Positions 37,595 to 55,921 are shown, counted from the stretch's first letter. The stretch: DNA of 64,000 nt from a virus (IMGVR_UViG_3300044825_002278:39910-103909), one strand, 5' to 3'. Program-made: numbers and translations. The notes: a model not told the origin generated them from the sequence alone.

Positions 37595-37624
37595 CATAAC
37601 GCACGCTGCTTATTTTTGCAAAAC

Positions 37625-37650
37625 AAGGGGTATCATAGTATACCCCTTTT
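37625..37650 (+). terminator. Intrinsic terminator
   Basis: AAGGGGTAT...ATACCCCTT stem followed by Ts. Confidence 0.6.
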
Positions 37651-37677
37651 ACTTAAATATAAATAAAGGAAAACTCA

Positions 37678-37971
37678 ATGGACAATAAACCAGAACCTAA
37701 AAACGCTAAATCATTAAAACAAGATATATCTAATCTTACAAACGAAGACAAGTACATTATAGTCTTATCTAAACTGAACGGAGATAATATTGACACATGG
37801 GTGGCTGCAAACAGCTTTAGACTAAACGATTACCCGATTGTAAGAAATACTTTATCTCAAATGATCTATGAGATGCACGAAGAAGAAATCAAAAAGGCCA
37901 CAAGCACAACGCAAGAACAACAACTTAAGACTCAAGAAAAAGAAATCAAAAATCTTTTAAATATGCAATAA
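37678..37971 (+). CDS. Hypothetical protein
   Basis: AAGGA RBS; last gene of the + arm. Confidence 0.7.
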   Translation: MDNKPEPKNAKSLKQDISNLTNEDKYIIVLSKLNGDNIDTWVAANSFRLNDYPIVRNTLSQMIYEMHEEEIKKATSTTQEQQLKTQEKEIKNLLNMQ

Positions 37972-37974
37972 AAA

Positions 37975-38024
37975 ATGGATGGAGTCAATATCCAACATAC
38001 CGCTGGACTATTGCTTCCATCCAT
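37975..38024. terminator. Long hairpin between convergent arms (possible bidirectional terminator)
   Basis: ATGGATGGA...TCCATCCAT with inner CAATA/TATTG and TCCA/TGGA pairing. Confidence 0.6.
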
Positions 38025-38044
38025 ACTTATTTTGGTTATTTCTA

Positions 38045-39019
38045 TTAATAGTATTCTAGCGACACATAAAGACCATATGCTTCTTTTGCGCCAGTAGAAA
38101 GCGGCGTTGCCGATAAAGCAACCGACCAAGTATGATGAGTGTCAACGCCAGTTCCTCCAAAAGTTTTTATTCTATTTCCTACTGTTGAACCATCACCAAA
38201 ACTAAAACCAAACACAGTTGATTGGTTTGTAGTATCAGTCAGATACTGTGTCCACTTAGGCCAAACCATACCAGTGCCACTTATTGTGTGACTATTGTGA
38301 AGATATTTTTGCCCAGAGCCGGGACTATCGAGCAATGGAACAACTATACCAGTTCCACCAACAGTATCATAGCTACCAGCAACAGCAGCAGCGGCAAGTC
38401 GCGAATCTCCGTTAACACGACTATCAGAGCTAGTCCCATTACGAAAAACCGCGCCCACACTGTTTGTATAATAATTTTTACCACCGGTAATAAATGCCGC
38501 TGGCCAAGGTTCGCCCCACCACCAAAGATCGCCACTTCCCTGTGCAGCAGAATTTAAGCCATTGTCTGCGCCTTGATTATTGAATGTACTACCGTTAAAA
38601 TTAACAATCTCAGCGACTTTAGTATTTACGCCACTAGCTGGATAATTAACATTGGCGCGATCATAAATTCTAAGTTGACAATTTTGCACTCTAACTGCCG
38701 AAGTATGACCAAATTCAATACCGAGAGTTCCGTACATGCTTCTTACGCCGCTCAATCCAGTATTTACCGGAGAACCGGGAACAGCGTCCAAAACACACCG
38801 ACCGCTAGGAAAAGAGTTAGCGACATATTTAATATTAGATGTAGCGTCGGCAATTACTGTAGCATCACCATTTGCGACATAAGTTGTATCTTGATATGAC
38901 CCAATTTGGACCGATGAACCTTGAGTTACACCAAAGAAAGCCAAACCAGAACCAGACAATGTTCTAACGCTTGGCGTTCCGTTGTTGTTTCCCAATATTT
39001 GAAATTGTATTTCTGCCAT
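38045..39019 (-). CDS. Putative virion structural protein
   Basis: G/S/T/N-rich beta-type composition; AGGAG RBS and TGTGTATAATA motif upstream. Confidence 0.65.
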   Translation of the reverse strand: MAEIQFQILGNNNGTPSVRTLSGSGLAFFGVTQGSSVQIGSYQDTTYVANGDATVIADATSNIKYVANSFPSGRCVLDAVPGSPVNTGLSGVRSMYGTLGIEFGHTSAVRVQNCQLRIYDRANVNYPASGVNTKVAEIVNFNGSTFNNQGADNGLNSAAQGSGDLWWWGEPWPAAFITGGKNYYTNSVGAVFRNGTSSDSRVNGDSRLAAAAVAGSYDTVGGTGIVVPLLDSPGSGQKYLHNSHTISGTGMVWPKWTQYLTDTTNQSTVFGFSFGDGSTVGNRIKTFGGTGVDTHHTWSVALSATPLSTGAKEAYGLYVSLEYY

Positions 39020-44152: not shown

Positions 44153-44880
44153 TATTGATATCCTATCTCAAAAAGTGTTGTGGTTTTAACAATAGGAGTT
44201 TTGATAAATAGTGTGGCTGAATTTGTAGTAAGCGACCGTCCAGAAGCAAACATCGTCATTGATTGGTTTGGGTTTGTTTGCTTGATGAATAGCGGAATAT
44301 CTTTACCTTTATTGAAATCAGTTTCAATATACAGTGTTGTATTTGTATTGTGTGATTGGTCGCCACGAATAGCCAATGATATACCTTTATTGGACGCTGC
44401 ATAGCCACTAATATTGATTACACCAATCAAAGATATAGCGCCTATATCAAGTGGACTTGTGCTACCACCTTGAGGAATTTCTGGAGGCGCTGGTCTAGTT
44501 ATAAACAAAGTTGTAAAGTTTTTTTCTTCTATGTAAGCTGGTCCGCGCATTGTCAATGTAGCATTGGTTCCAATTACAGTATTTGGAATACCTCTAACTC
44601 GCATTGACAAAGGTTTGGCTATTGGTGTTCCGCCATAGTTTGGTTGACCATTCATATAAATTGGCATTTTGCCACTGGCAACGCCATCAGATAAGGGCAA
44701 GCCTATAAAAAGCGGTATTTCTGCTGACTTTGGACCGGTAATAAAAAGATTGGCACTTTTAGTAACTTCATAAACTGGCCCAATAAATAAACTAATATCG
44801 CCCGAAGCGTCAGGACCGCCGCGTATGGTCAAAGTTGTAGTGTTTACAGTTTCTAGTCCAAATACCATTTTAGCTACCAC
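44152..44880 (-). CDS. Virion protein with ~13 short xxLFI beta-strand repeats
   Basis: ISLFIG, ANLFIT, IPLFIG, TTLFIT, TTLYIE, IPLFIK, ATLFIK, TTLFEI. Confidence 0.6.
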   Translation of the reverse strand: MVAKMVFGLETVNTTTLTIRGGPDASGDISLFIGPVYEVTKSANLFITGPKSAEIPLFIGLPLSDGVASGKMPIYMNGQPNYGGTPIAKPLSMRVRGIPNTVIGTNATLTMRGPAYIEEKNFTTLFITRPAPPEIPQGGSTSPLDIGAISLIGVINISGYAASNKGISLAIRGDQSHNTNTTLYIETDFNKGKDIPLFIKQTNPNQSMTMFASGRSLTTNSATLFIKTPIVKTTTLFEIGYQ

Positions 44881-47800
44881 CAGCCTTAAAATTTATATTG
44901 TCTAATCTTGCATCTAGTTCTCGTGTTATTATTTCTTTCAGTTTTGGAGTTATAGCTTCGGCTATTTGATTTTTTAACACATCGCCATTTTGAATATTGA
45001 AAGCCAAAGTCATGTCTCCACTAAATTGATGAACAACATTCATTCCAGCAGAAAGAGCAGAAACTAAACTTCCAACAATTCCGCCAAAACTACTAAATGC
45101 CGTTATAATGTTATCAAGTCCACTTTTGAAATCGCCACTAAATGAATCAAAAATACTTTGAATACCGTTAAAATTAAATGAAAACCCGCCGCCGGATTTG
45201 GGAATTCCACCATCTCCTAAATAATTCACTCCGCCAACCAAACCGCCGCGACGAAATCCCGGAACTTGTCCCTTGTTCAGAGACTTCATATAACCAACAC
45301 CGAATTTGTTTACAGCTTCGGGACTCATAACAAATTCGCCCGGAGTCAACATGGCCGGTATTGTGTCGGCTGGATTTCCACCTTCGTTAAAATATTTTGC
45401 GCGACCACCGCTTTGCATGTAAACCAAACCACCGCCAGAAAAATAAAACCCACTTGCCCGAAGTCTTTCAACAGCATCTCTTTCTTTTGTGGAAAGTCCC
45501 ATTCCAGCATCTCTTGCGTTTATTTGATCTTTTGTAGAAACATCGGCTCCAAACCCAACGGCGGTATTTGTTTTAGTTTTCCCCGGAGGGATTTTAACTG
45601 TTGCCACATAACTTTGTACAGAAGCAATAACATCTTCCCAAGTATCAATTGGACCTTTAGTTCCTAAAGCAGCTTCAGTTAAAAGTCCCCAGCCGGAATA
45701 TTGTATTTTTTTATATGCTTTTAAAGTTGTTATGTCGGCAAGTGACTTTTTAACCCAGTTCTCTATTGTTTCAACTGTAGCCTCTGGATTTAACATAGAT
45801 CCAGAAGCATTAATTTCGGAAAAAATTGCTCCAGCTCCAGAATTCATCCCATTCATGAAATCTGCAACAGCTTTTGTTTCTGCGGCAAGAAATCTATTCG
45901 ACTGAAACTTCCCAGATCTAATCAAAAAAATCAAATCTTTTATGTCTTTATCACTAGAATTCAGATCTTTAGCAAATTTAGTGAGTTGTCCGCTTTGTGC
46001 TAAAGCGGCGATTCCTCGCTGCATCATTGATGTATATGAAGCGCCACTTATTAGATTAATTCCGCTCAATGGTCCAGCGCCAGTAGTAGTAGCGGTAGCA
46101 GCACCGATTGGAGTTACTGGACCGCCAGCAGCGCGATAAATTGGACCGCCCATTGCTTTGTTTACAGTGGATGTGTTTCCATTGTTTATTGCAGCAAGGT
46201 TAGAAACGCCAATTTTGTCCACGGCTGATTTACGAATAACAAATTCGCCGGGAGTTAACATCGCTGGAACAGTATCTGTGCCGCGAGGTTTGAATATAGT
46301 TCCTCCGGCAGCTTTGTAAATCGCACCTTGATTTCCTATCACTCCATTTTCAGTTCTTAATATAGGACCACGATATGATGATGAAACTTTGGATTGCTTA
46401 CTTGAAGCGGCTTTTTTTGCATCTTCGTCATTAAGACGATCCCAAGGAAGTTTTCTCAATTCGCCCATTGCAGTTACTAATCTAACTGCATCTTGATCAG
46501 CAGAAATTACAGCGCCCTCAAATGGAGAACTTAATATCCCCTGAGTATCGGTCCATTTTTCAAAAGGATAATTTAATTTTTCAACAACTCTTACGCGTGA
46601 ATTTGACAAAAGATCAGTCCAAGGAACATCAAATTCTCTAGACTGTGCCGGTTGATTTGGAACATCTAATCTTTTTACTTTTGTAATTTTCACTCCAGAT
46701 GTTGATGCAGAAAGAATATCAGCTTTTATCTTTCTTCCATCCGAACTATAAAGTACATCGCGAGTATCTTCTGCCTCTTTGGCCAACTCCTGCATTCTAT
46801 TTTCTTTTTCAATTGCCTTTTTTTGTTTTCTGCTTTCTTCAGCCTGTTCAGCCTGTTGCGCCATACGTTCATTACGAGATTTTTCGGCTGCGATTTGATT
46901 ATGAACCTGTCTAGCAGCTTGATCGCGGCGCTCTTTTTCTCTAGCTTTTTCTCTGCTTGTTTTCATTTCTGGATCATTATCATATCGCTCGCCAAGGTCT
47001 GCGTCAGGAGCTATAGATAAAAGGTAATTTCTTATAAGATCTTCTGTAACATATAATCCACTACTAGAAAATTTGTAAGCTCCAGCGTCTTTAAATTTTT
47101 GATTTTGTCTTATATTATTATCTAATTTTATTTCATCATTTAAAACACCATACTTTGCAAGCTGATCTTTGTTTTTTTTAACAGCAAGATTTGCTAATCT
47201 ACGTTTTTCTTTTTCGGAATTGAATCGAGATAAAACTTTTGGTTTAAAATCATTTGAAATATTTTTACTAGCTAAAAGTACGCCAGCAAATACCTCTTCA
47301 AAATCTGGATTAGATTTCTGTATTCCAAACATTTTAGTTGTTAATGGTTGTAAAATATCAACAAACCCAGAATCAATTAATTTCTTATACCTTCCAGCCT
47401 CTCCAATCATTCTTTTTCCGCTAGTTTGAGGTGGATTAGGAAGTCTATCAATCATACTAAAGAAATCATTAGGATCTGATAATTCCGAATAACTCATCAA
47501 AGAGTTTCTTAGCTGCTCTTTTAATGCGCCATCTCCAAATATTTTTGAAAGAATTTTACTTCTTGTGACATCTGGAAAACTTTCAGTATTATCAATAATA
47601 CCGGAACCTGTAAACATATTTCCATAATAGTCTGCTATAGTTTGCAAATAAGATTGATTTTGAAGCTCTGGACTTTCAATAGCATTGTTCAAATATTGCA
47701 TTTTGATAAATAAATCCCTTAATCCCGGAAATTGTCTTTCTGCATCACTCCACTCGCTATAAGGCTTTAAATCTGGATATTTTTGAATTAATTCATCTTC

Positions 47801-50800
47801 TTTTTTATTACTTCCGTTAGCACGATATATAACACTTCCGCCTTTGCTTCTATTAATTGCTTTCAATAACGGCATATTTTTAGCAGCCGAACGTGCATTG
47901 ACAACATATTCGCCCGGAGTGAGCATTGCCGGTACAGTGTCGGTTCCTTTGGACTGAATAGAACCGCCATCGGCACGATAAACAACACCACCCTTTGAAA
48001 AACCAAGAGAACCAGCCTGCGTATTGAGATTACTAGCCGGAACTTTGGCGGCAATCGCCTGAAGTTTTGTTTGTGTCCTGAGTTCTTGTAAAATTAATTC
48101 TTCGGTTGTGGTTTGTGTAGCAAGTTCTTTAGCAATGTCTGGCGGAAAACCTAGACGAACGGCATCTCGGAAAACAAGCTCATTGGCAATTTGACCGCCA
48201 GTTAATCCAGTCCCAGCAATCATAACATCTTTTAATTTATCGAGCAAACCAAAAGTTTGCGAGCGTTGTTCTTCGCTCAAATTCTGCGTTGTCCCAGTTT
48301 GTATGGCAGACAAAACTCCCATTGCGCCAGATGTGATTGCAGATCTTGCATCATCTCCGCCAGCAACAAACTCTTTTAAAACAGAGAATGCTTGCTCGCG
48401 AACTTGACGTTCTTTATCTAAAGCTTCTGTAAGCCGATCTATTTCAGCGCCTGAACTCGCAATTTCTTCAAGAGCAGCCGAAGCATCTTTTGTAACATTG
48501 GCAAGTTGCGCTTGTTCAGCTTGAAGTTTAGACAATTGGCCATCTAGGTCTTTTACAGTATTTCCCAATTGTTTCAAACGCGCTATTTCGTTTATAATTT
48601 CAATTGTACGAGCTTGTGCCGCTTTCTTTTCGCGAGCAAGTTGTGCTGGATCTGTAGCATTTAAAAATCTCCCGCCGCGACTAGCTTGCCCAGCGTTGAG
48701 TGTTCTTTGACGAGATTCGAGTTCGTTTCTGGCTCTTACAGCGGCAACACTTTGTCCAGTGGCACGCGCCAAAGCTTCAGAACCAGATGAAACGGCGCTA
48801 TTGTATTTGCTAATTGCCGACAATTGTTCTTCGCGCAACATTTGTTCGGCTTGAATTTGTTGTTGCCGAAGATTGATTTCTTCCTGCTGAACCGATTGAA
48901 TTTCATTGATGATACTTGCTGAATCTTTGGCACGTTCTGCCAAAGGCGCAAGAATTTTATCCAAAACTTCTGGAGTAATTGGTGTTTTTTGATCGCGCAA
49001 AGTAACGGCAATTTGCTGGAAAATAGCTTTTCCTAATTCTCCACCGCCCAAAGCTTCTGGAGTTAAACCTATATCTTTTAAAATCTTTTCAGCGTCAATA
49101 GACTCTTCTAATTCAAATGTTTTACCAATTAGCGACTTGTTTGCTTGTTCAAAAAGTTTGGCTACATTGGTTAGTTCATCGGCTGCTTTTTGAGCTTCTG
49201 GACTTCCAGAAACTTGGGCAACACCTTGAACTTGACGAGAAAATTTTGCGGCATCGGTGATTTTGCTTGGTTCTTCGATATTTCTAATTGGTTTAATTGC
49301 AGTCGATAAATCAACAATACCGCCAGAAAGAGTATCAGTAAAATCTTTTAATGCTTCGGAGCGCGCCTTGATTGTATCCTTTTCATCGGCCAAAGAATCT
49401 AAAAATACAGCAGTTCTTCGCGCTGCTTCGGCCATAGCAATTTGAGCAGCTACTGCCCGTTGATTTGCTTCCGCCTCGGCCATTTTTGCCTTTATAGTTG
49501 CGTCTCTTCCTGCATAAGCAGCGTTAATTTTTATCTGACTTTCTTTATTGACTGCATCTACAGCATTTTTATCCTGCGAGTTAACTTGACTTAATTTGAA
49601 ATCCCGTTCTCTTTCAAGTGATTGAACATAAGCTTCTATTGCTTGATTGTAAGCAGCAACGGTTTTTTGAGCAGCGTTGGTGGTTCCACTAAGATCTAAA
49701 TTAGCGGCAGCATCATTTAAATTCTTACCAGTTTCTTGAATTTGTCTTGCCGTTTCGTCTGCCGAAGCTTTGAGAGTTGCAACGCTTGCTTTAACGCTTG
49801 CTTGTATATCGGCTATATCGCCTTCGCCCAAATCTGGGTTGTTCTTTTTTGCCGCTGCTGCTATTTCTTCTGGACTCATAGCAGATGCCGCTTCTGTAGT
49901 TACTCCCAATCTTCCAGCGCTAGTTTTTAATTGGTTTGAAGCTAATGTTCCGGCTCTTAAAGCATCGTTTCCAGCAGAAGAAGTAGCAATAGCCTCCATT
50001 CTTCGTTCAAGTTTATCTTGATTGCTAAGTCCCGGAGTAGACTCTATTGCGTTTAAAGTACTGCTTAATTTGTATGAAGATGCGCTTAATTGAAGATACG
50101 ATTCGTATACTTTTCCAATTGCTTCAACTTCGCGTCTTCTTGCTTCTGCCGCCTCCATAACCGCCGACTCTGAATCCAACAAAGCCGTTCCAAGTCCAGC
50201 AGCAGCTCCAATGGCTCCACCGATAGCTGCGCCAAAAGGACCGCCAAGTAAAAATCCAACTCCAGCGCCAGCGGCAGTAAAAGAAGCAACAGTTTTCAAT
50301 GAACTTGCAGACATTTGCTCGGCGCTTCTTTGTCGCATTTCAAGTTCTTGTTCAAGTCCAGCTTGTAGTTCTCCGGGTTTAAAATTAGATACCCCAGTTT
50401 CTGCTGCACTTTTGAGTCTAGCGTCTCTATCTTTGCTGATTGCTTCTGCGCTTTCTTTGTTTTGAGAAGACAAAAATTTTAGCGCAGACACGGCAGCAAC
50501 GGCTGCAATAACCACAAGCCCAAGCGCATTTGCAGCGGCAGCGCCTTTTTGGGCTGCGGTATTTTGTGTAATAGAAGTGGTGTTTGCTTGAACCGCGAGA
50601 CTATTTGCGCCAAAAGATGTTAAAGTTTGTGCAAGCGTTCCAACAATACCAACCAAACCTACGGTAAAGCCAGCGGTTTCTGCTATTGCTTTGTTTGTTG
50701 TGTCGCCAAATAATCCAAGTTGACTTGTTACTGCTGCTACCGAAGCCCCAAGAAATGCAAAATTTTGCATACTACCAGCAATTTCACCGCCTCTTTGAGC

Positions 50801-53800
50801 AAAACCAGCCCGAGAATCTTTGTCGCCAAGACCAACCCCAGTATACTTTGGCGCACCTAAGAATTCTTTTCTTTGCTCTTGTCTTTTTTTAGCCAAAGAT
50901 TGATTCAAAGCCTGCTGTTCAGTGGTTGTATTTCTTATAACCTGATTTAAAGCATCTTGAGAAGTCCATCCCGCTTTAACAAACATTCTATATCTAGCAA
51001 AAGAATCTTTAAGTTGTTGACCTTCCAAGCCCATAGCTTTGAACATTCCAGATGCATATACAGCATCTTTTTGAACTTGATTAAAATTTCCGGTTTGAAC
51101 TGTAACGCTACCAGCGGCTCTTGCTTCAGATGTTCCTGCTGTTTTTCTGGCATCAGATGCTTGTTGTTGTTCTAATCTTCTAGCAAGTTGTTCATTTGCA
51201 TCTTCGGTTCGACCAATCGCTTTATTGGCTGACTGCATCGATTTAGAAACAAGTTCTGTGTCATCGCTTACTTTATCAACATTTCTGGTAAATCCCTTCA
51301 AAGCCGCTTTAACAGCTTCAACATCTGTTAAACCACTCAATTGTCCGGTCAACTGCTCAAAAGCCGATGTGTTCTTAATTGCCGCTTGTTTAAGCATTGC
51401 AAATTCTTTGATGGATAATTGAGAAACTGCTCCAGTTCCTCCTCTAAGCTGATCAAGCTGTTGAGCTACGCCACCTTGGGCAAACTTTTGTACACCAACT
51501 ACACCACCACGGGCATAACCAGTAACACCGTGTTTGTTCATACGGTTGAGATTTGTATATCCAATACTTTGTGCAGCCGACTTGCTAACAACAAATTCTC
51601 CGGGAGTAAGCATTGCTGGAACAGTATCTGAACCAGATATACCTCCGCCAGAAGCGCGTTTAACAACTCTTTGCGCCCTTGAGCCTTTTGTGTTAAAGGC
51701 ATCCAGTGCCGGTTGTTTGCTACCGCCTTGAGTAAATATCATATTGGCAAGCGGAATACCAAATAACTGATTTAAATATTCCCCAACGCCATCGACACGG
51801 CGAGACTTGGTTATAATTTTTAAATTATTTGGATTGATTTGACCATTTTGAATAGCCGATTGCAACGTCTTTCCAAATTGTGTTAATGGAGAAGATTTAA
51901 TATCTTGTAGTCTGCCTGCACCAACAAAATACTTTTTCAATACTTCTTCTTTTGCTTTTTCTGTTTTAGCTTGAGCGTAGGCTTTATCACCAATTGTTCT
52001 AATTAATGTGCGGTCTACATCAAGAGCGCCGCCACCAGCTTTGATAATATCTTCGATATTTTTTGGATTTGGAAGAATCGCACCCTTGGCATTTTCTAAT
52101 ATATCATCAACCAATGGGTAATTACTTGGTTTTACACCAGTACCAGAACTGCCTTTATTAAATTTTTGTATTAAGCCGCCAAAATGTTTTTTATTTACAG
52201 TAGATTTGTCATTAACTGTTGGTCTATTTTGAAAATAAGATTCATATAAATCTGATGCTAATTGACTTTGTGTCTTTTTCTCAAATTCATTGGGAGCAAT
52301 GTTCGACCCGCCTGAAACTTTAGCGTCAACATAATTTATAGCTTGCAAAGCCCGAAACAGTTTTCCAGTTTTAACACCATTAGTAAAATCAAATGGCCTA
52401 TTCGATTCTTTAGCTTCAGCCGAGAGTGGCTGACCATTAAAAGCATCAACAACATCTTCAAATAAATTACCCTTTTGCGCTTGTGGTAATTGATATTGCG
52501 GCGAAAATTGAACCTCGTTTCCTTGTAGTCTTACTTCAGCCACTGCGCCAAATTTTTGTACTACAGAATTTATTAATTTTTTAGATTCTTCATTTACAAT
52601 ATTGTCAAATGCAAGTTTTTCTTGACTCCCAATACCTTCCGCTAATGTGGAATATGTTTTTTGTGTAAACCCAAGCTGTTTTTGAGCCACATCCTTTATA
52701 TCTTGAATAGACATTTTGCCACGAGATATTAATGTATCTCTAGCTCCGGCTTTTATATTTGTAGGAATTCCATAGATATCAACAATAGATTTTGAAGCTA
52801 ATGCACCAAAACCAGTTTTTTTATTTATTACGTCATTAAGAGATATTGTAACTTGCCCAGATTTTGGCTGTAGTGACTCATTTATTATATCTGGAACCGC
52901 AATTCCAACTGACGATTCCTTTGCTATACCACCAGCAGCATACCCATTAGCATTCATTTGCGCCAGTGTTCCAGCGCCCAATTTATTCACACTGCTTTTG
53001 CGAATCACAAACTCGCCCGGAGTTAGCATTGCCGGAACAGTGTCACGATTGCCACTTCCGGGAACCAAGCCACCACTCGCAAACTTGCTTGCACGAATAC
53101 CGCTTGGCGCACCAGCAAACCCTCGCAATATACCAATACCACTCGCCAATCCCTGACCAGCTTTTAACGCAAACAAAGTAGTAAGCAGCGGAAGCACCGG
53201 CTCTAAAGCTTTGCCAATATTGATGAATGCATCGGCAAGTTTTAACGCTCCGGTTATAATACTTCTAAACGAATCGCTACCAACTAAATTTGCAATAAAT
53301 TCATTGAATTTTTCTTTGGTTTTATTTATTTGAACTGCTAAAGCTTGTTGCGATGTTTGAGCATCAGCAGCAACCGAACCGCTTGCGCTTTGAGCAATAT
53401 TTAAAGCTTGCTGCGCAATAGTAAATTGATTGATAAGAGGAATAACTTTACCAATTTGACGATAACCGCCAAGTTCTTCGACTATTGCAGCAAATCTAAA
53501 ATCACGAGGGTCTAAAGACGACAACCCTTCGGACAATCTTTTAACAGCCTCAAAAGCTCCAACAAATTGTCCTTGTGAATTTCTAAGTTCGATACCTAAT
53601 TCTTTCAAAGCGTCCACGGTATCGCCGCGTTGTATACGTGTAAAAATAGTTCGCAAGCCAGTACCAATCGTTTCGGCACTTTCGCGTGTAGTGGCACGAA
53701 CACTTGTAAACAAAGAAATAAGCTCGTTTACGCTTCCGCCAGCATTTGAAAACACGCCGCCAACTTTGCGAATAACATCCACAAGGTCGGCAGATTCAAC

Positions 53801-54484
53801 TGCAAAAGCCTTAGAAACAGCATTGATAGAATCAAGGCTTTGTTCTAAAAATTTAACGTCTCCACCAGCTCTTGCAGCTTCGCCACGAAACTGATTGATA
53901 AGCGCAATCGCACCTTCGGTAGTAGACTGAAGATCGTCAAACGAAGCCGAAAGAGTTGTTTTAGCAAGAATATCAAGCGACTTTCTTGTTTTATCGGCAC
54001 TCAAACCGGCTTGCAACAATATGCGAGCAGTGCCAGCAAGTTCGGCAGAAGAAACACCCAACGAAGTTGATAGCTTACGGATTTCGTTTGACATAGCGCC
54101 AACTTCGCGCATTGTTTGACCAGTTGTTTGAGATATTTTTACCATCTCGTATTCAAAGTCAATCGCAGCACTAGTTGATTTCTTAAAAGCATTTACAAGC
54201 GAAAGCAAACTTCCAGTAGCAACTGTAATAACACTAAATCTACGAGCCGATTCGGCCAAACTACGATTAAAATCGCCCATAGAACCAGCGGCAGTTTTAG
54301 CATTTGCATTAAACGTAGCCATTTGCTGGTTAGCCTGAGCCAAAGATTTGGTGTTGGCTTGTACATTTAATTGTACATTGCCCAAAGGAGCAAGTTGTTT
54401 TTTAAGCTGAGAAACAACCTGATTTATATTGGATGAATTTGCTTGTAATTGTAACTGTGCAGTTAAGTTAAATCGCTGTGCCAT
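44870..54484 (-). CDS. Tail tape measure protein, 3204 aa, modular with internal cargo domains
   Basis: N-terminal TP901-type TMP core (AAIDFEYEM..ISQTTG, LLQAGL, ESAETIGTGLRTIFTRI), Ala/Gln-rich helices, Gly-rich hydrophobic segments, five PAMLTPGE repeats; follows tail tube and chaperones. Confidence 0.92.
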   Translation of the reverse strand: MAQRFNLTAQLQLQANSSNINQVVSQLKKQLAPLGNVQLNVQANTKSLAQANQQMATFNANAKTAAGSMGDFNRSLAESARRFSVITVATGSLLSLVNAFKKSTSAAIDFEYEMVKISQTTGQTMREVGAMSNEIRKLSTSLGVSSAELAGTARILLQAGLSADKTRKSLDILAKTTLSASFDDLQSTTEGAIALINQFRGEAARAGGDVKFLEQSLDSINAVSKAFAVESADLVDVIRKVGGVFSNAGGSVNELISLFTSVRATTRESAETIGTGLRTIFTRIQRGDTVDALKELGIELRNSQGQFVGAFEAVKRLSEGLSSLDPRDFRFAAIVEELGGYRQIGKVIPLINQFTIAQQALNIAQSASGSVAADAQTSQQALAVQINKTKEKFNEFIANLVGSDSFRSIITGALKLADAFINIGKALEPVLPLLTTLFALKAGQGLASGIGILRGFAGAPSGIRASKFASGGLVPGSGNRDTVPAMLTPGEFVIRKSSVNKLGAGTLAQMNANGYAAGGIAKESSVGIAVPDIINESLQPKSGQVTISLNDVINKKTGFGALASKSIVDIYGIPTNIKAGARDTLISRGKMSIQDIKDVAQKQLGFTQKTYSTLAEGIGSQEKLAFDNIVNEESKKLINSVVQKFGAVAEVRLQGNEVQFSPQYQLPQAQKGNLFEDVVDAFNGQPLSAEAKESNRPFDFTNGVKTGKLFRALQAINYVDAKVSGGSNIAPNEFEKKTQSQLASDLYESYFQNRPTVNDKSTVNKKHFGGLIQKFNKGSSGTGVKPSNYPLVDDILENAKGAILPNPKNIEDIIKAGGGALDVDRTLIRTIGDKAYAQAKTEKAKEEVLKKYFVGAGRLQDIKSSPLTQFGKTLQSAIQNGQINPNNLKIITKSRRVDGVGEYLNQLFGIPLANMIFTQGGSKQPALDAFNTKGSRAQRVVKRASGGGISGSDTVPAMLTPGEFVVSKSAAQSIGYTNLNRMNKHGVTGYARGGVVGVQKFAQGGVAQQLDQLRGGTGAVSQLSIKEFAMLKQAAIKNTSAFEQLTGQLSGLTDVEAVKAALKGFTRNVDKVSDDTELVSKSMQSANKAIGRTEDANEQLARRLEQQQASDARKTAGTSEARAAGSVTVQTGNFNQVQKDAVYASGMFKAMGLEGQQLKDSFARYRMFVKAGWTSQDALNQVIRNTTTEQQALNQSLAKKRQEQRKEFLGAPKYTGVGLGDKDSRAGFAQRGGEIAGSMQNFAFLGASVAAVTSQLGLFGDTTNKAIAETAGFTVGLVGIVGTLAQTLTSFGANSLAVQANTTSITQNTAAQKGAAAANALGLVVIAAVAAVSALKFLSSQNKESAEAISKDRDARLKSAAETGVSNFKPGELQAGLEQELEMRQRSAEQMSASSLKTVASFTAAGAGVGFLLGGPFGAAIGGAIGAAAGLGTALLDSESAVMEAAEARRREVEAIGKVYESYLQLSASSYKLSSTLNAIESTPGLSNQDKLERRMEAIATSSAGNDALRAGTLASNQLKTSAGRLGVTTEAASAMSPEEIAAAAKKNNPDLGEGDIADIQASVKASVATLKASADETARQIQETGKNLNDAAANLDLSGTTNAAQKTVAAYNQAIEAYVQSLERERDFKLSQVNSQDKNAVDAVNKESQIKINAAYAGRDATIKAKMAEAEANQRAVAAQIAMAEAARRTAVFLDSLADEKDTIKARSEALKDFTDTLSGGIVDLSTAIKPIRNIEEPSKITDAAKFSRQVQGVAQVSGSPEAQKAADELTNVAKLFEQANKSLIGKTFELEESIDAEKILKDIGLTPEALGGGELGKAIFQQIAVTLRDQKTPITPEVLDKILAPLAERAKDSASIINEIQSVQQEEINLRQQQIQAEQMLREEQLSAISKYNSAVSSGSEALARATGQSVAAVRARNELESRQRTLNAGQASRGGRFLNATDPAQLAREKKAAQARTIEIINEIARLKQLGNTVKDLDGQLSKLQAEQAQLANVTKDASAALEEIASSGAEIDRLTEALDKERQVREQAFSVLKEFVAGGDDARSAITSGAMGVLSAIQTGTTQNLSEEQRSQTFGLLDKLKDVMIAGTGLTGGQIANELVFRDAVRLGFPPDIAKELATQTTTEELILQELRTQTKLQAIAAKVPASNLNTQAGSLGFSKGGVVYRADGGSIQSKGTDTVPAMLTPGEYVVNARSAAKNMPLLKAINRSKGGSVIYRANGSNKKEDELIQKYPDLKPYSEWSDAERQFPGLRDLFIKMQYLNNAIESPELQNQSYLQTIADYYGNMFTGSGIIDNTESFPDVTRSKILSKIFGDGALKEQLRNSLMSYSELSDPNDFFSMIDRLPNPPQTSGKRMIGEAGRYKKLIDSGFVDILQPLTTKMFGIQKSNPDFEEVFAGVLLASKNISNDFKPKVLSRFNSEKEKRRLANLAVKKNKDQLAKYGVLNDEIKLDNNIRQNQKFKDAGAYKFSSSGLYVTEDLIRNYLLSIAPDADLGERYDNDPEMKTSREKAREKERRDQAARQVHNQIAAEKSRNERMAQQAEQAEESRKQKKAIEKENRMQELAKEAEDTRDVLYSSDGRKIKADILSASTSGVKITKVKRLDVPNQPAQSREFDVPWTDLLSNSRVRVVEKLNYPFEKWTDTQGILSSPFEGAVISADQDAVRLVTAMGELRKLPWDRLNDEDAKKAASSKQSKVSSSYRGPILRTENGVIGNQGAIYKAAGGTIFKPRGTDTVPAMLTPGEFVIRKSAVDKIGVSNLAAINNGNTSTVNKAMGGPIYRAAGGPVTPIGAATATTTGAGPLSGINLISGASYTSMMQRGIAALAQSGQLTKFAKDLNSSDKDIKDLIFLIRSGKFQSNRFLAAETKAVADFMNGMNSGAGAIFSEINASGSMLNPEATVETIENWVKKSLADITTLKAYKKIQYSGWGLLTEAALGTKGPIDTWEDVIASVQSYVATVKIPPGKTKTNTAVGFGADVSTKDQINARDAGMGLSTKERDAVERLRASGFYFSGGGLVYMQSGGRAKYFNEGGNPADTIPAMLTPGEFVMSPEAVNKFGVGYMKSLNKGQVPGFRRGGLVGGVNYLGDGGIPKSGGGFSFNFNGIQSIFDSFSGDFKSGLDNIITAFSSFGGIVGSLVSALSAGMNVVHQFSGDMTLAFNIQNGDVLKNQIAEAITPKLKEIITRELDARLDNINFKAGGS
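45329..53044 (-). repeat. Five dispersed DT(V/I)PAMLTPGE(F/Y)V coding repeats (~53006, 51590, 47903, 46238, 45329)
   Basis: Read directly from the translation; codons differ between copies. Confidence 0.9.
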
Positions 54485-54555: not shown

Positions 54556-55539
54556 TTATTCGCTCGCAGCGTCGTTTTCAGCCAAAACCTTTTTCTTAGT
54601 TTTCTTGGTTTTTTCTTCGCCAACACTACCTTCTGCCACAAGATTTTCTTCTTTTTCAAAATCTTCCTTTTTGGCAGTAACAATAGGGTTGCCATTGTCA
54701 TCCAAAAACGGCTTGCGAACAGCTTTGTCCTTTGTAACCCAGCTTTCCTCGCCATCTTCGTCAACAATTTTGATCACTTCTTGACCGTCCTTGTTTACAT
54801 AATAACGATCATTTGGATCTTTGTTGAGTTCGCCTTCGGGCGTGCGATATGCGACAAAACGTCCATCATCATCGATGAGTCTGCCTTCAATATCAACAGT
54901 ATGACCCTTTTCGTTGATGAGCGACAATTCTTCGTTTACAAATTCAAACTCACGCAAAAACTTATTCTCGGTAAGTTTATTGTCATAATCTGGATCAAGC
55001 CCATAAATAATGCTTGCAAGCTCAGAAGAAGCCTTTACAACCCAAGGCTGATCGCCACTAGCGTCAAAGTCCTTTTGGGTTTGAAAGTATGGCTGATTTG
55101 TGTTTGGATTGACCATGCAAAGTCTAACCAGTTCGGTAAATCGCGCATTGTCGGCTTGGCCCTCAACCGTGTTTTGATCGAGAATATTTCTTTCTGCAAT
55201 AAATTCACGAAATTGAAAACGAAGTCGTCGCAAATCCAAAGCAATTTGTTTTGCTTCCGATAGTTTGATGCCACCGCTCTTCAGGACTTGTTCTTTTTCC
55301 TGAATTTCGTTTATATATCTGTCGTTCTTTTCTTGCTTTTCTTTGTTCCAAATTCCCTGTTCGGTCATGTAGTCAGAAAGTTTTTGTCGCAGCAAAGCTC
55401 CAGAGTCAAGCGCTTTTCTAAAAGCCTTGTTGTATTCGATTTGTGAATCACGATACTCTTGAGGTCCGGGAGTTTTCAGCTTGATACGAACATTGTTTCC
55501 GTCTTTGTCTATTGACTCGATAATTTTTTCTTTATCCAT
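54556..55539 (-). CDS. Probable tail assembly chaperone
   Basis: Directly upstream of the TMP; AAGGAG RBS before ATG 55539; charged and helical. Confidence 0.6.
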   Translation of the reverse strand: MDKEKIIESIDKDGNNVRIKLKTPGPQEYRDSQIEYNKAFRKALDSGALLRQKLSDYMTEQGIWNKEKQEKNDRYINEIQEKEQVLKSGGIKLSEAKQIALDLRRLRFQFREFIAERNILDQNTVEGQADNARFTELVRLCMVNPNTNQPYFQTQKDFDASGDQPWVVKASSELASIIYGLDPDYDNKLTENKFLREFEFVNEELSLINEKGHTVDIEGRLIDDDGRFVAYRTPEGELNKDPNDRYYVNKDGQEVIKIVDEDGEESWVTKDKAVRKPFLDDNGNPIVTAKKEDFEKEENLVAEGSVGEEKTKKTKKKVLAENDAASE

Positions 55540-55921
55540 CTTGGTTATCTCCTTGGTTGGAATCATTACTTACTGGTAAATTAATCTGATATCTTTTCTT
55601 CTGAACTTCATACCCCGAAAATTCTGCTTCTAAATTTCTAATCTGCGTGTTGCCACGATCCAGAATTGTAGCGCGAATTTCATCGTATATGTCCTTCATT
55701 TGTTTTTGTTCTGTTGTTAGCTCTTCTTCGTTTTCAAAACACCAAAGAAAGCCAAACCTCTTTTCGATTGTATCCAAAGCGCCAATCATAGTTGTTTGTA
55801 TTTTCTTTTTACAAGATTTAAACAACGAATCCTTGGATACTTCCCTCCTCCTTTCTTCACGAATGTTTTTTAAGTTTATTGACTTCTTGAGAAAATTGTT
55901 GTAATCTTTATCATCCGACAT
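55532..55921 (-). CDS. Hypothetical protein (tail assembly region)
   Basis: Operonic ORF. Confidence 0.65.
   Translation of the reverse strand: MSDDKDYNNFLKKSINLKNIREERRREVSKDSLFKSCKKKIQTTMIGALDTIEKRFGFLWCFENEEELTTEQKQMKDIYDEIRATILDRGNTQIRNLEAEFSGYEVQKKRYQINLPVSNDSNQGDNQDG

Follow-up and report, generated by a model that had tools for sequence, protein, structure and literature searches.

The tape measure protein (TMP) whose gene lies in IMGVR_UViG_3300044825_002278:39910-103909, a stretch of viral DNA of 64,000 nucleotides that is called the window here, is probably a constant backbone with joint-fenced slots for folded modules, and these modules would travel into the envelope or the cell of the host during infection. 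The window belongs to a 103.9-kb IMG/VR record, which is estimated to be 67% complete. The TMP gene is a single uninterrupted open reading frame (ORF) at positions 44870-54484 of the window on the minus strand, and its product of 3,204 amino acids (aa) is named P0001. By its N-terminal core, P0001 is a TP901-type TMP: it matches PhageMin_Tail (PF10145) of Pfam at aa 133-339 with 92.8 bits (cutoff 33.2) and tape_meas_TP901 (TIGR01760) of NCBIfam at aa 96-426 with 110.5 bits (cutoff 28.8), and the PHROGs that it matches are TMP PHROGs. It is the TMP of an uncultured siphovirus of roughly 150 kb.

In the arrangement that we propose, the backbone would consist of a TP901-type N-core, a membrane-inserting and coiled-coil central block, and a C-terminal end that is presumably docked in the tail tip. 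Each slot would be fenced by a cassette of about 55-70 aa or by a shorter GGxIQKFAxGG motif, and would hold folded modules that are not part of the ruler. TMPs exit the tail before the DNA does, so the modules would reach the host envelope or cell; we infer this from the general biology of TMPs. The most speculative step is that the joints may be maturation cleavage sites at which the modules would be released as separate products. By analogy with other phages this step is conceivable, and we would call it possible rather than probable.

We first describe the joints themselves. The initial annotation had placed five near-identical cassettes at about 53006, 51590, 47903, 46238 and 45329, and the exact core DT[VI]PAMLTPGE[FY]V was indeed found there in five copies, at aa 481, 953, 2182, 2737 and 3040 (53006-53044, 51590-51628, 47903-47941, 46238-46276 and 45329-45367 in the window). 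Each cassette is about 55-70 aa long with the layout xxGG, D-T-V-P-A-M-L-T-P-G-E-F-V, helix, N, xxGG. All of them lie on the minus strand: cassette 1 at aa 460-521 (52922..53107; FASGG ... DTVPAMLTPGEFV ... YAAGG), cassette 2 at aa 936-1005 (51470..51679; RASGG ... DTVPAMLTPGEFV ... YARGG..FAQGG), cassette 3 at aa 2161-2218 (47831..48004; FSKGG, YRADGG ... DTVPAMLTPGEYV ... SKGG), cassette 4 at aa 2717-2782 (46139..46336; YKAAGG ... DTVPAMLTPGEFV ... AMGG) and the terminal cassette 5 at aa 3022-3089 (45218..45421; FNEGG ... DTIPAMLTPGEFV ... FRRGG). A cassette profile search of the 104-kb record returned the same five places and no others. The cassette cores of P0001 are 94% identical in protein and 82% identical in DNA, and the longest exact DNA run between any two copies is 16 nt. 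Judged from these identities, the copies are not recent duplicates but old ones. Since the protein identity of 94% in the core stands against only 57% at third codon positions, selection acts on the peptide.

The same annotation had listed a number of short GG motifs clustering at the cassette borders. All the xxGG motifs of that list are present in P0001, and the clustering also holds: 10 of the 13 [FYW]xxGG motifs fall into the stretches reaching from -45 to +75 aa around the cassette cores, which together make up 19% of the protein. The count of 13 is about 9-fold enriched when compared with 2,000 shuffles (1.5 +/- 1.2, maximum 7). There is also a GG joint without a cassette, the border motif HFGGLIQKFNKGSSG at aa 767-781 (52142..52186, minus strand), for which the family consensus is GGxIQKFAxGG. 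When P0001 was compared with itself, no similarity was detectable among the inter-cassette segments once the cassettes were set aside. B1/E and B2/E, named for the segments described below, were rejected as paralogous pairs. Cross-slot matches at 26-28% identity include the cassettes themselves. An AlphaFold2 model of aa 460-1005 based on 9 sequences had a mean pLDDT of 39.7 and gave no cassette fold. A predicted homotrimer of cassette 2 scored 0.01 with an uncertain fold, which says nothing either way about self-association.

Searching with aa 520-935 of P0001 gathered a family of at least 95 giant TMPs of 1,775-4,241 aa from metagenomes, on contigs of up to 235 kb. The nearest relative compared is P0002 (2,919 aa, four cassettes), the TMP of L006, a 148-kb IMG/VR relative. 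The family shares one plan, namely an N-core, a cassette, a B segment, a cassette, the central block, a cassette, optional units of a segment plus a cassette, and a short C-terminus. The number of cassettes ranges from 2 to 5, with two in 20 TMPs, three in 35, four in 35 and five in 5. The backbone lengths are constant with narrow interquartile ranges, the medians being 451 aa for the N-core, 1,148 aa for the central block and 114 aa for the C-terminus. The central block, with an interquartile range of 1,060-1,184 aa, shows no correlation with total size (r=0.06), whereas the total length of the TMP rises and falls with the extra slot (r=0.86). Insert lengths range from 0 to 1,549 aa, and they differ even between close relatives with syntenic tail genes.

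The three backbone parts can be recognized in P0001, all on the minus strand. Segment A (aa 1-459, 53108..54484) is the N-terminal TMP core, which is 89% identical to that of P0002 at the amino acid level and is present in 88-89 of 94 relatives. Segment C (aa 1006-2160, 48005..51469) is the central backbone, with four hydrophobic or glycine-zipper stretches and long helical sequence, and is 49% identical to P0002. The four hydrophobic stretches lie within aa 1242-1437 (window 50174-50761), and a C19orf12-like glycine-zipper match was obtained at E 3e-4, below the Pfam cutoff; the single membrane/helical block announced by the initial annotation corresponds to this region. Segment F (aa 3090-3204, 44873..45217) is the conserved C-terminal end, 75% identical to P0002, with one hydrophobic stretch at aa 3126-3151. 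By position it may be the counterpart of the TMP ends that dock in the tail tip in lambda (aa 818-849), T5 and Douge. The C-terminus reads FKAGGS in P0001 (window 44873-44890) and FKAGG in P0002 (L006:18740-18757), with the xxGG motif also found at the cassette borders. The idea that such a GG C-terminus is a sign of cleavage after GG was dropped, because other relatives end differently.

Across the family the cassettes group by position and not by genome. The nearest neighbour of a first cassette is another first cassette in 87/92 cases, second cassettes pair with second ones in 91/95 and last cassettes with last ones in 71/73, and the identity between cassettes is 42% within one protein compared to 55% at the same position between proteins. 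Because of this grouping, the cassettes are best taken as ancient position-specific paralogues rather than homogenised or interchangeable repeats. Seven shorter proteins were found that might be split at the joints, but they cannot be interpreted, since their contigs are short and frameshifts are possible. One of them, P0097 (1,561 aa, on a 13.5-kb ENA contig), begins precisely with the first residues of B2 (MAKAPLIDDI...), just past the GG motif; it could be a natural TMP split at the joint, or an assembly or frameshift artefact.

The comparison between P0001 and P0002 illustrates how the content changes at the joints. Over aa 1-515 the two proteins are about 90% identical, and the homology stops directly after the YxAGG-I of cassette 1. 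B1 is then replaced by a very divergent subtype. From aa 778 to 1000, which covers B2 and cassette 2, the identity rises to 99% in protein and 92% in DNA (window 51470-52150 against L006:12335-13003), compared with 49-90% for the other TMP blocks of the same phage pair. Two explanations may account for this identity: purifying selection was very strong, or that block alone was exchanged relatively recently. Directly after cassette 2 the divergence class shifts, with identity down to about 49%. Beyond cassette 3 the homology to both P0002 and a further relative, P0003, ends, and the following segments of P0001 and P0002 are unrelated. Cassette 4 is an extra cassette that is absent in P0002 and P0003, and homology to P0002 resumes about 25 aa upstream of the last cassette, cassette 5 being orthologous to the last cassette of the relatives. 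Since the third-position identity differs by block (0.65, 0.78, 0.44 and 0.61), mosaic exchange is indicated.

The same trend is found when more members are considered. P0001, P0002 and P0003 have common flanks, but the slot that follows the central block holds a different, unrelated segment in each, and the extra-slot segments across the family are mostly singletons. In an all-against-all comparison of the 95 members, 44.5% of the internal homology-block ends were at most 25 aa from a cassette against 13.4% expected, a count that uses non-independent pairs and in which conserved cassettes may draw the BLAST ends to themselves. The peaks of block ends are sharp at the 3' edge of the cassettes and at the start of B2, and blocks often begin at the aa 767-781 joint. 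The alignment of related TMPs proposed in the initial annotation thus showed content differing at the cassettes, and it is supported that the cassettes mark real borders between modules, where modules are gained, lost and replaced among relatives. Two of the earlier claims hold only in part. The cargo had been called swappable; slot contents are indeed replaced at the cassettes, but B2 together with cassette 2 is conserved more than any other part of the family and is not swappable. The repeats had also been taken as recombination joints; exchange boundaries do lie at the cassettes, but the DNA identity between copies (16 nt) is too short to drive recombination alone.

We now consider what the slots contain. 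The first slot, after cassette 1, holds segments B1 (aa 522-777, 52154..52921, minus strand) and B2 (aa 785-935, 51680..52132, minus strand), separated by the border motif. A structure model of aa 600-935 built with 45 sequences had a mean pLDDT of 80, and in it the GG linker at aa 759-784 (pLDDT <50) is the only disordered stretch, lying between two folded domains. B2 is modelled at pLDDT >90 as an alpha/beta domain. Its best Foldseek matches are the HAD phosphatases AphA and phosphoserine phosphatase (E 5e-3, prob 0.97-0.99, TM 0.38 by target). The top 25 matches in VIA are CheY-like receivers, with Z 6.9-7.6, about 100 residues aligned and a root-mean-square deviation of about 3.2 A, and class C acid phosphatases are also matched there with Z 6.4-6.9. 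PLVDD, DVDRT (DxDxT), KS and FTQGGSK are invariant in the 45 sequences. HAD motif I would be ALDVDRT, which directly follows the strand E220-222 of the model and whose D223, D225 and T227 are invariant in the 45 sequences, while the invariant IITKS and FTQGGSK come in the order expected for HAD motifs II and III. The residue order DD, D, S, K fits the receiver quintet, though Z stays below 8 and no Pfam Response_reg match was found. We therefore read B2 as a predicted HAD/CheY-type aspartyl-phosphate (phosphoryl-transfer) pocket under extreme purifying selection.

For B1, a variable N-terminal part is followed by a domain at aa 662-757 with the motif G.FE ... FDF ... (D/E)AK, which is conserved both in 9 and in 45 aligned relatives, with two divergent subtypes among them. 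The domain is modelled at pLDDT 60-94 with FDF and VDAK on short strands, and VIA gave no fold match of its own for it within the aa 600-935 model. From its E...D...(D/E)xK-like motif, B1 may be put forward as an idea for a PD-(D/E)xK nuclease candidate. In the structure prediction proposed in the initial annotation, B2 thus came out with a confident fold and B1 without a fold match of its own.

Beyond the central block are segments D and E. Segment D (aa 2219-2716, 498 aa; 46337..47830, minus strand) is a lineage-specific insert with a long charged helical stretch, as read from the sequence. An exhaustive search of 1.84 billion representatives returned a 142-aa fragment, 97% identical, as the sole match; aa 2320-2640 had no match among the 94 relatives, and there was no usable ESM Atlas match. 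Two short beta-rich units in D (window 46400-46780, aa ~2570-2695) look SHD1-like by eye (W-T-D..G ... L.W/P...L..ED). SHD1 (PF03983) was rejected: its model yielded no candidate anywhere in the record at E<=10, nor in P0001 at E<=1. Segment E (aa 2783-3021, 45422..46138, minus strand) is a variable insert with weak relatives of 26-38% identity in several family members, where they occupy different slots, and its ESM Atlas scores reached 0.75-0.76 only. The several enzyme-like blocks suggested by the initial annotation are borne out only in part, by B2, with its alpha/beta fold and acidic pocket, and B1, with its conserved motif; no family could be recognised for D and E.

A known enzyme family does appear in relatives. 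PF03496 (ADPrib_exo_Tox, the ADP-ribosyltransferase (ART) exoenzyme family) was recorded in five relatives including P0046, P0054, P0051 and P0064. A rescan gave 30.2 bits at aa 966-1182 of P0046 and 26.7 bits for P0054 against a cutoff of 23.4, while P0059 was unconfirmed at E<=0.01. In P0046 the ART domain sits between YGGIIQKFAQGG (GGIIQKFAQGG) and a tandem cassette pair, and STS and EEE motifs are visible. A phmmer search of P0046 against PDB sequences gave no match, so the catalytic residues were not aligned to a solved toxin, and PF03496 was not found by the Pfam scan in P0001 itself. Considering the HAD/CheY-like B2 and the ART domain of relatives, the carriage of enzymes by TMPs of this family is supported.

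The cassette can be related to known phages. A cassette profile (A1) was built from nine cassettes and searched against PDB sequences. Two stretches of gp16 of the mycobacteriophage Douge (aa 962-1027 and aa 1412-1462) were matched with E 5.5e-11, and one of lambda gpH (aa 732-786; HFATGG ... HRGEFVF ... GYATGG) with E 7.5e-4. On this evidence from sequence profiles, the cassette is homologous to lambda gpH 732-786, that is, it appears to be a TMP end module that is single in lambda, double in Douge and multiplied in P0001. No Pfam model covers the cassette; Tape_meas_lam_C spans gpH 627-701, just upstream of it. With tblastn the cassette was found in 150 cultured-phage records, mostly in TMPs with one or two copies, and many Gordonia phages have it in two places. 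The Douge gp16 structure (PDB 8ZDO) resolves only aa 1658-1699, and the repeats are not discussed in the Douge paper.

The TMPs known to be cleaved are those of lambda and T5 only (PMC12617516). Lambda gpH is cut after assembly in a Gly-rich region near its C-terminus, yielding gpH* and gpHC of about 14 kDa, where both the cut site and the protease are unidentified; the cassette lies in a portion of gpHC (about aa 690-817) that the structure does not show, and the tip-docked end is aa 818-849 (PMC12617516). We computed that a cut at aa 720-737, just before the cassette, would give 78.5-80.1 plus 13.8-12.2 kDa, which fits the reported sizes without discriminating among sites. T5 pb2 is cut between a hydrophobic stretch and its enzymatic end, and for the resulting pb2C a release into the periplasm has been proposed (bioRxiv 10.1101/2022.09.20.507954). 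As a side observation, if pb2C is the last 92 residues, the T5 (L024) cut falls between FVPR and AEGGMMYPG...GEHGTEVV, at pb2 aa 1116-1150. By eye only, the pattern FVPR, AEGG...PG...GE..VV resembles FVPRGTDTVPAMLTPGEFV and FVPRGTDTVPAML of the family.

Besides the two biases of the block-end count, several points weigh against the reading of the cassettes as fences around delivered enzymes. The cleavage of P0001 is argued by analogy with lambda and T5, its ejection from general TMP biology, and its enzymatic activity is a prediction. In lambda the cassette adjoins the Gly-rich cleavage region on its downstream side and is not established as the cut site even there, and the cassette hidden Markov model does not detect T5 pb2. 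The fold scores of B2 (Foldseek E 5e-3, VIA Z <8) are middling and may represent just a common Rossmann-like arrangement. B2 also has no acidic HAD motif IV in the canonical place, with the invariant PLVDD before motif I instead, and a Pfam scan of P0001 at E<=1 gave no match to HAD, receiver, nuclease or peptidase models. In addition, D and E have no recognisable family. Lastly, as it is conserved in about 82/94 relatives, B2 is conserved core equipment rather than swappable cargo.

There is a further-reaching version, in which the cassette with its xxGG would be a portable maturation signal of lambda gpH, T5-like and actinophage TMPs, and P0001 would be a polyprotein cut after assembly into up to six products, several of them enzymes shot in ahead of the DNA. 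We regard this version as possible, though rather unlikely. A search for a GG-specific protease with Prok-JAB, Peptidase_C48 and NlpC/P60 gave no candidate in the 104-kb record, which is about 67% complete, so that a protease may be encoded elsewhere.

The same architecture could also arise in a TMP that keeps its modules tethered and is never cleaved. In that case the cassettes would be hinges, contacts with a chaperone or the tube lumen, or refolding nuclei, and the modules would act in the chain within the envelope conduit. Cassettes that are ancient and specific to their position (87/92, 91/95 and 71/73) fit structural partners that are equally position-specific, and the search of the record with Prok-JAB, Peptidase_C48 and NlpC/P60 found no GG-specific protease family. 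TMPs with embedded uncleaved enzymatic motifs are, moreover, already established. Cleavage is known for the lambda and T5 TMPs only (PMC12617516). What speaks for cleavage is that the homologous cassette of lambda adjoins a real cleavage region; also, the ADP-ribosyltransferase of relatives, which would act in the cytoplasm, would be hard to use while tethered in a channel. We account the tethered arrangement a possible explanation, if a somewhat unlikely one.

A different explanation places the function in the DNA, with the cassettes serving as hot spots for homologous exchange and unequal crossing-over and their peptide being just a linker. The coincidence of exchange boundaries with cassettes agrees with it, as do the occurrence of segment type E in different slots of different relatives and the ART insert of P0046, which comes with an extra cassette resembling the first-position one. 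It is nevertheless improbable when the core is 94% identical in protein but 57% at third positions, the longest run of 16 nt is too short for efficient recombination, the copies are not homogenised within a genome (42% identity inside one protein, 55% between proteins at equal position), and the peptide is conserved from lambda to actinophages. Finally, the inserts might be nothing but additional ruler, where all 3,204 aa set an exceptionally long tail and the enzyme-like look is over-read. TMP length does set tail length in lambda (Katsura 1987, cited in PMC12617516), D has its long charged helical stretch, and neither D nor E has a detectable enzyme family. This is very improbable in view of the compact alpha/beta fold of B2 (pLDDT >90) with its invariant acidic pocket, the Pfam ART domain in relatives, and backbone lengths that stay constant while the inserts vary from 0 to 1,549 aa.

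When compared with known systems, the carrier that we propose, a backbone with fenced slots, shares single features with several of them. In lambda gpH the cassette has the Gly-rich cleavage region on one side and the tip-docked end on the other, and the last cassette of P0001 likewise lies before segment F. However, gpH is 853 aa long with one cassette and without inserted folded modules or a known enzyme, while P0001 has five copies and inserts of about 1,500 aa; the N-core is also of type TMP_2 in lambda and of TP901 type (PF10145) in P0001. T5 pb2, with an assembly-time cut before its enzymatic C-terminal piece and the proposed periplasmic release, provides the working model for each fenced module, but T5 has a single cut and a single cargo. 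Douge gp16 and many Gordonia phages carry two cassette copies per TMP; these actinobacteriophage TMPs differ in being about 1,700 aa or shorter and in having no swappable enzyme slots reported.

Embedded enzymes are also found in other TMPs. The TMPs of TM4 and SPbeta (YomI) contain embedded peptidoglycan hydrolases that act during entry, and the enzymatic motif in the TM4 TMP is reportedly uncleaved. YomI is annotated as a transglycosylase/TMP, and the N-core of P0001 is 29-31% identical to it. These are cell-wall hydrolases, whereas the recognisable modules here are HAD/CheY-like (plus ART in relatives), none of them a known wall hydrolase, and are fenced by repeated joints.

Polyvalent proteins (Iyer et al. 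2017) are packaged in the head or transferred by conjugation, often with an embedded MPTase peptidase (PMC5512222). The likeness is that they are very large, mosaic, multi-domain and virion-associated, that they carry varied effectors including ARTs, and that their entry into the host together with the DNA is predicted, as is occasional processing (PMC5512222). In P0001, by contrast, the tail ruler itself would do the carrying, a dedicated joint fences the modules, and no peptidase family was detected with Pfam. One mark of polyvalent proteins is several unrelated effector domains in one chain; P0001 has one enzyme-like fold (B2) and one motif-level candidate (B1), relatives add the ART, and delivery is something that we infer. 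The survey of polyvalent proteins (PMC5512222) makes no mention of tape measure proteins, and the cassette motif strings occur in no paper of the open-access literature searched. Cleaved TMPs, TMPs with embedded hydrolases and injected polyvalent proteins are already known, and what is new is a multiplied gpH-type joint that would fence swappable modules.

TMPs are usually viewed as rulers and channel formers, sometimes with a wall hydrolase. In P0001 the ruler would be used as a modular carrier, with a fixed backbone, fenced slots and lineage-specific folded modules. If this is true, the tail lumen would join the head as a compartment from which pre-made proteins are delivered, and tail-borne effectors could be spotted in metagenomes by their fences. 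As the joint appears to be the same peptide as the one beside the cleavage region of lambda gpH, it is a testable candidate determinant for tail maturation in lambda and T5. If the polyprotein version were also true, mapping the cut here would locate and explain the cleavage of gpH to gpH* in lambda, which has been unmapped for 50 years.

For the genomic setting, the TMP gene lies within a structural block on the minus strand whose gene order and sizes are syntenic with L006. The ten neighbour genes of the TMP matched no PHROG or Pfam family, and none was assigned as gpK-like or as a chaperone. Against cultured phages, megablast gave no match and tblastn gave distant N-core and cassette matches only. 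Immediately upstream of the TMP are two ORFs of 129 aa and 336 aa (window 54556-55921, minus strand) with a 35-nt overlap, in the position of the G/GT tail assembly chaperones. No frameshift site was established for this pair and no family matched it; the heptamers AAATTTA and AAAAAAT are close by. Further away, at about 37600-38050 of the window, where a plus-strand replication/glycan block meets the minus-strand structural block, the GC skew switches sign and the GC content rises from about 0.33 to about 0.40.

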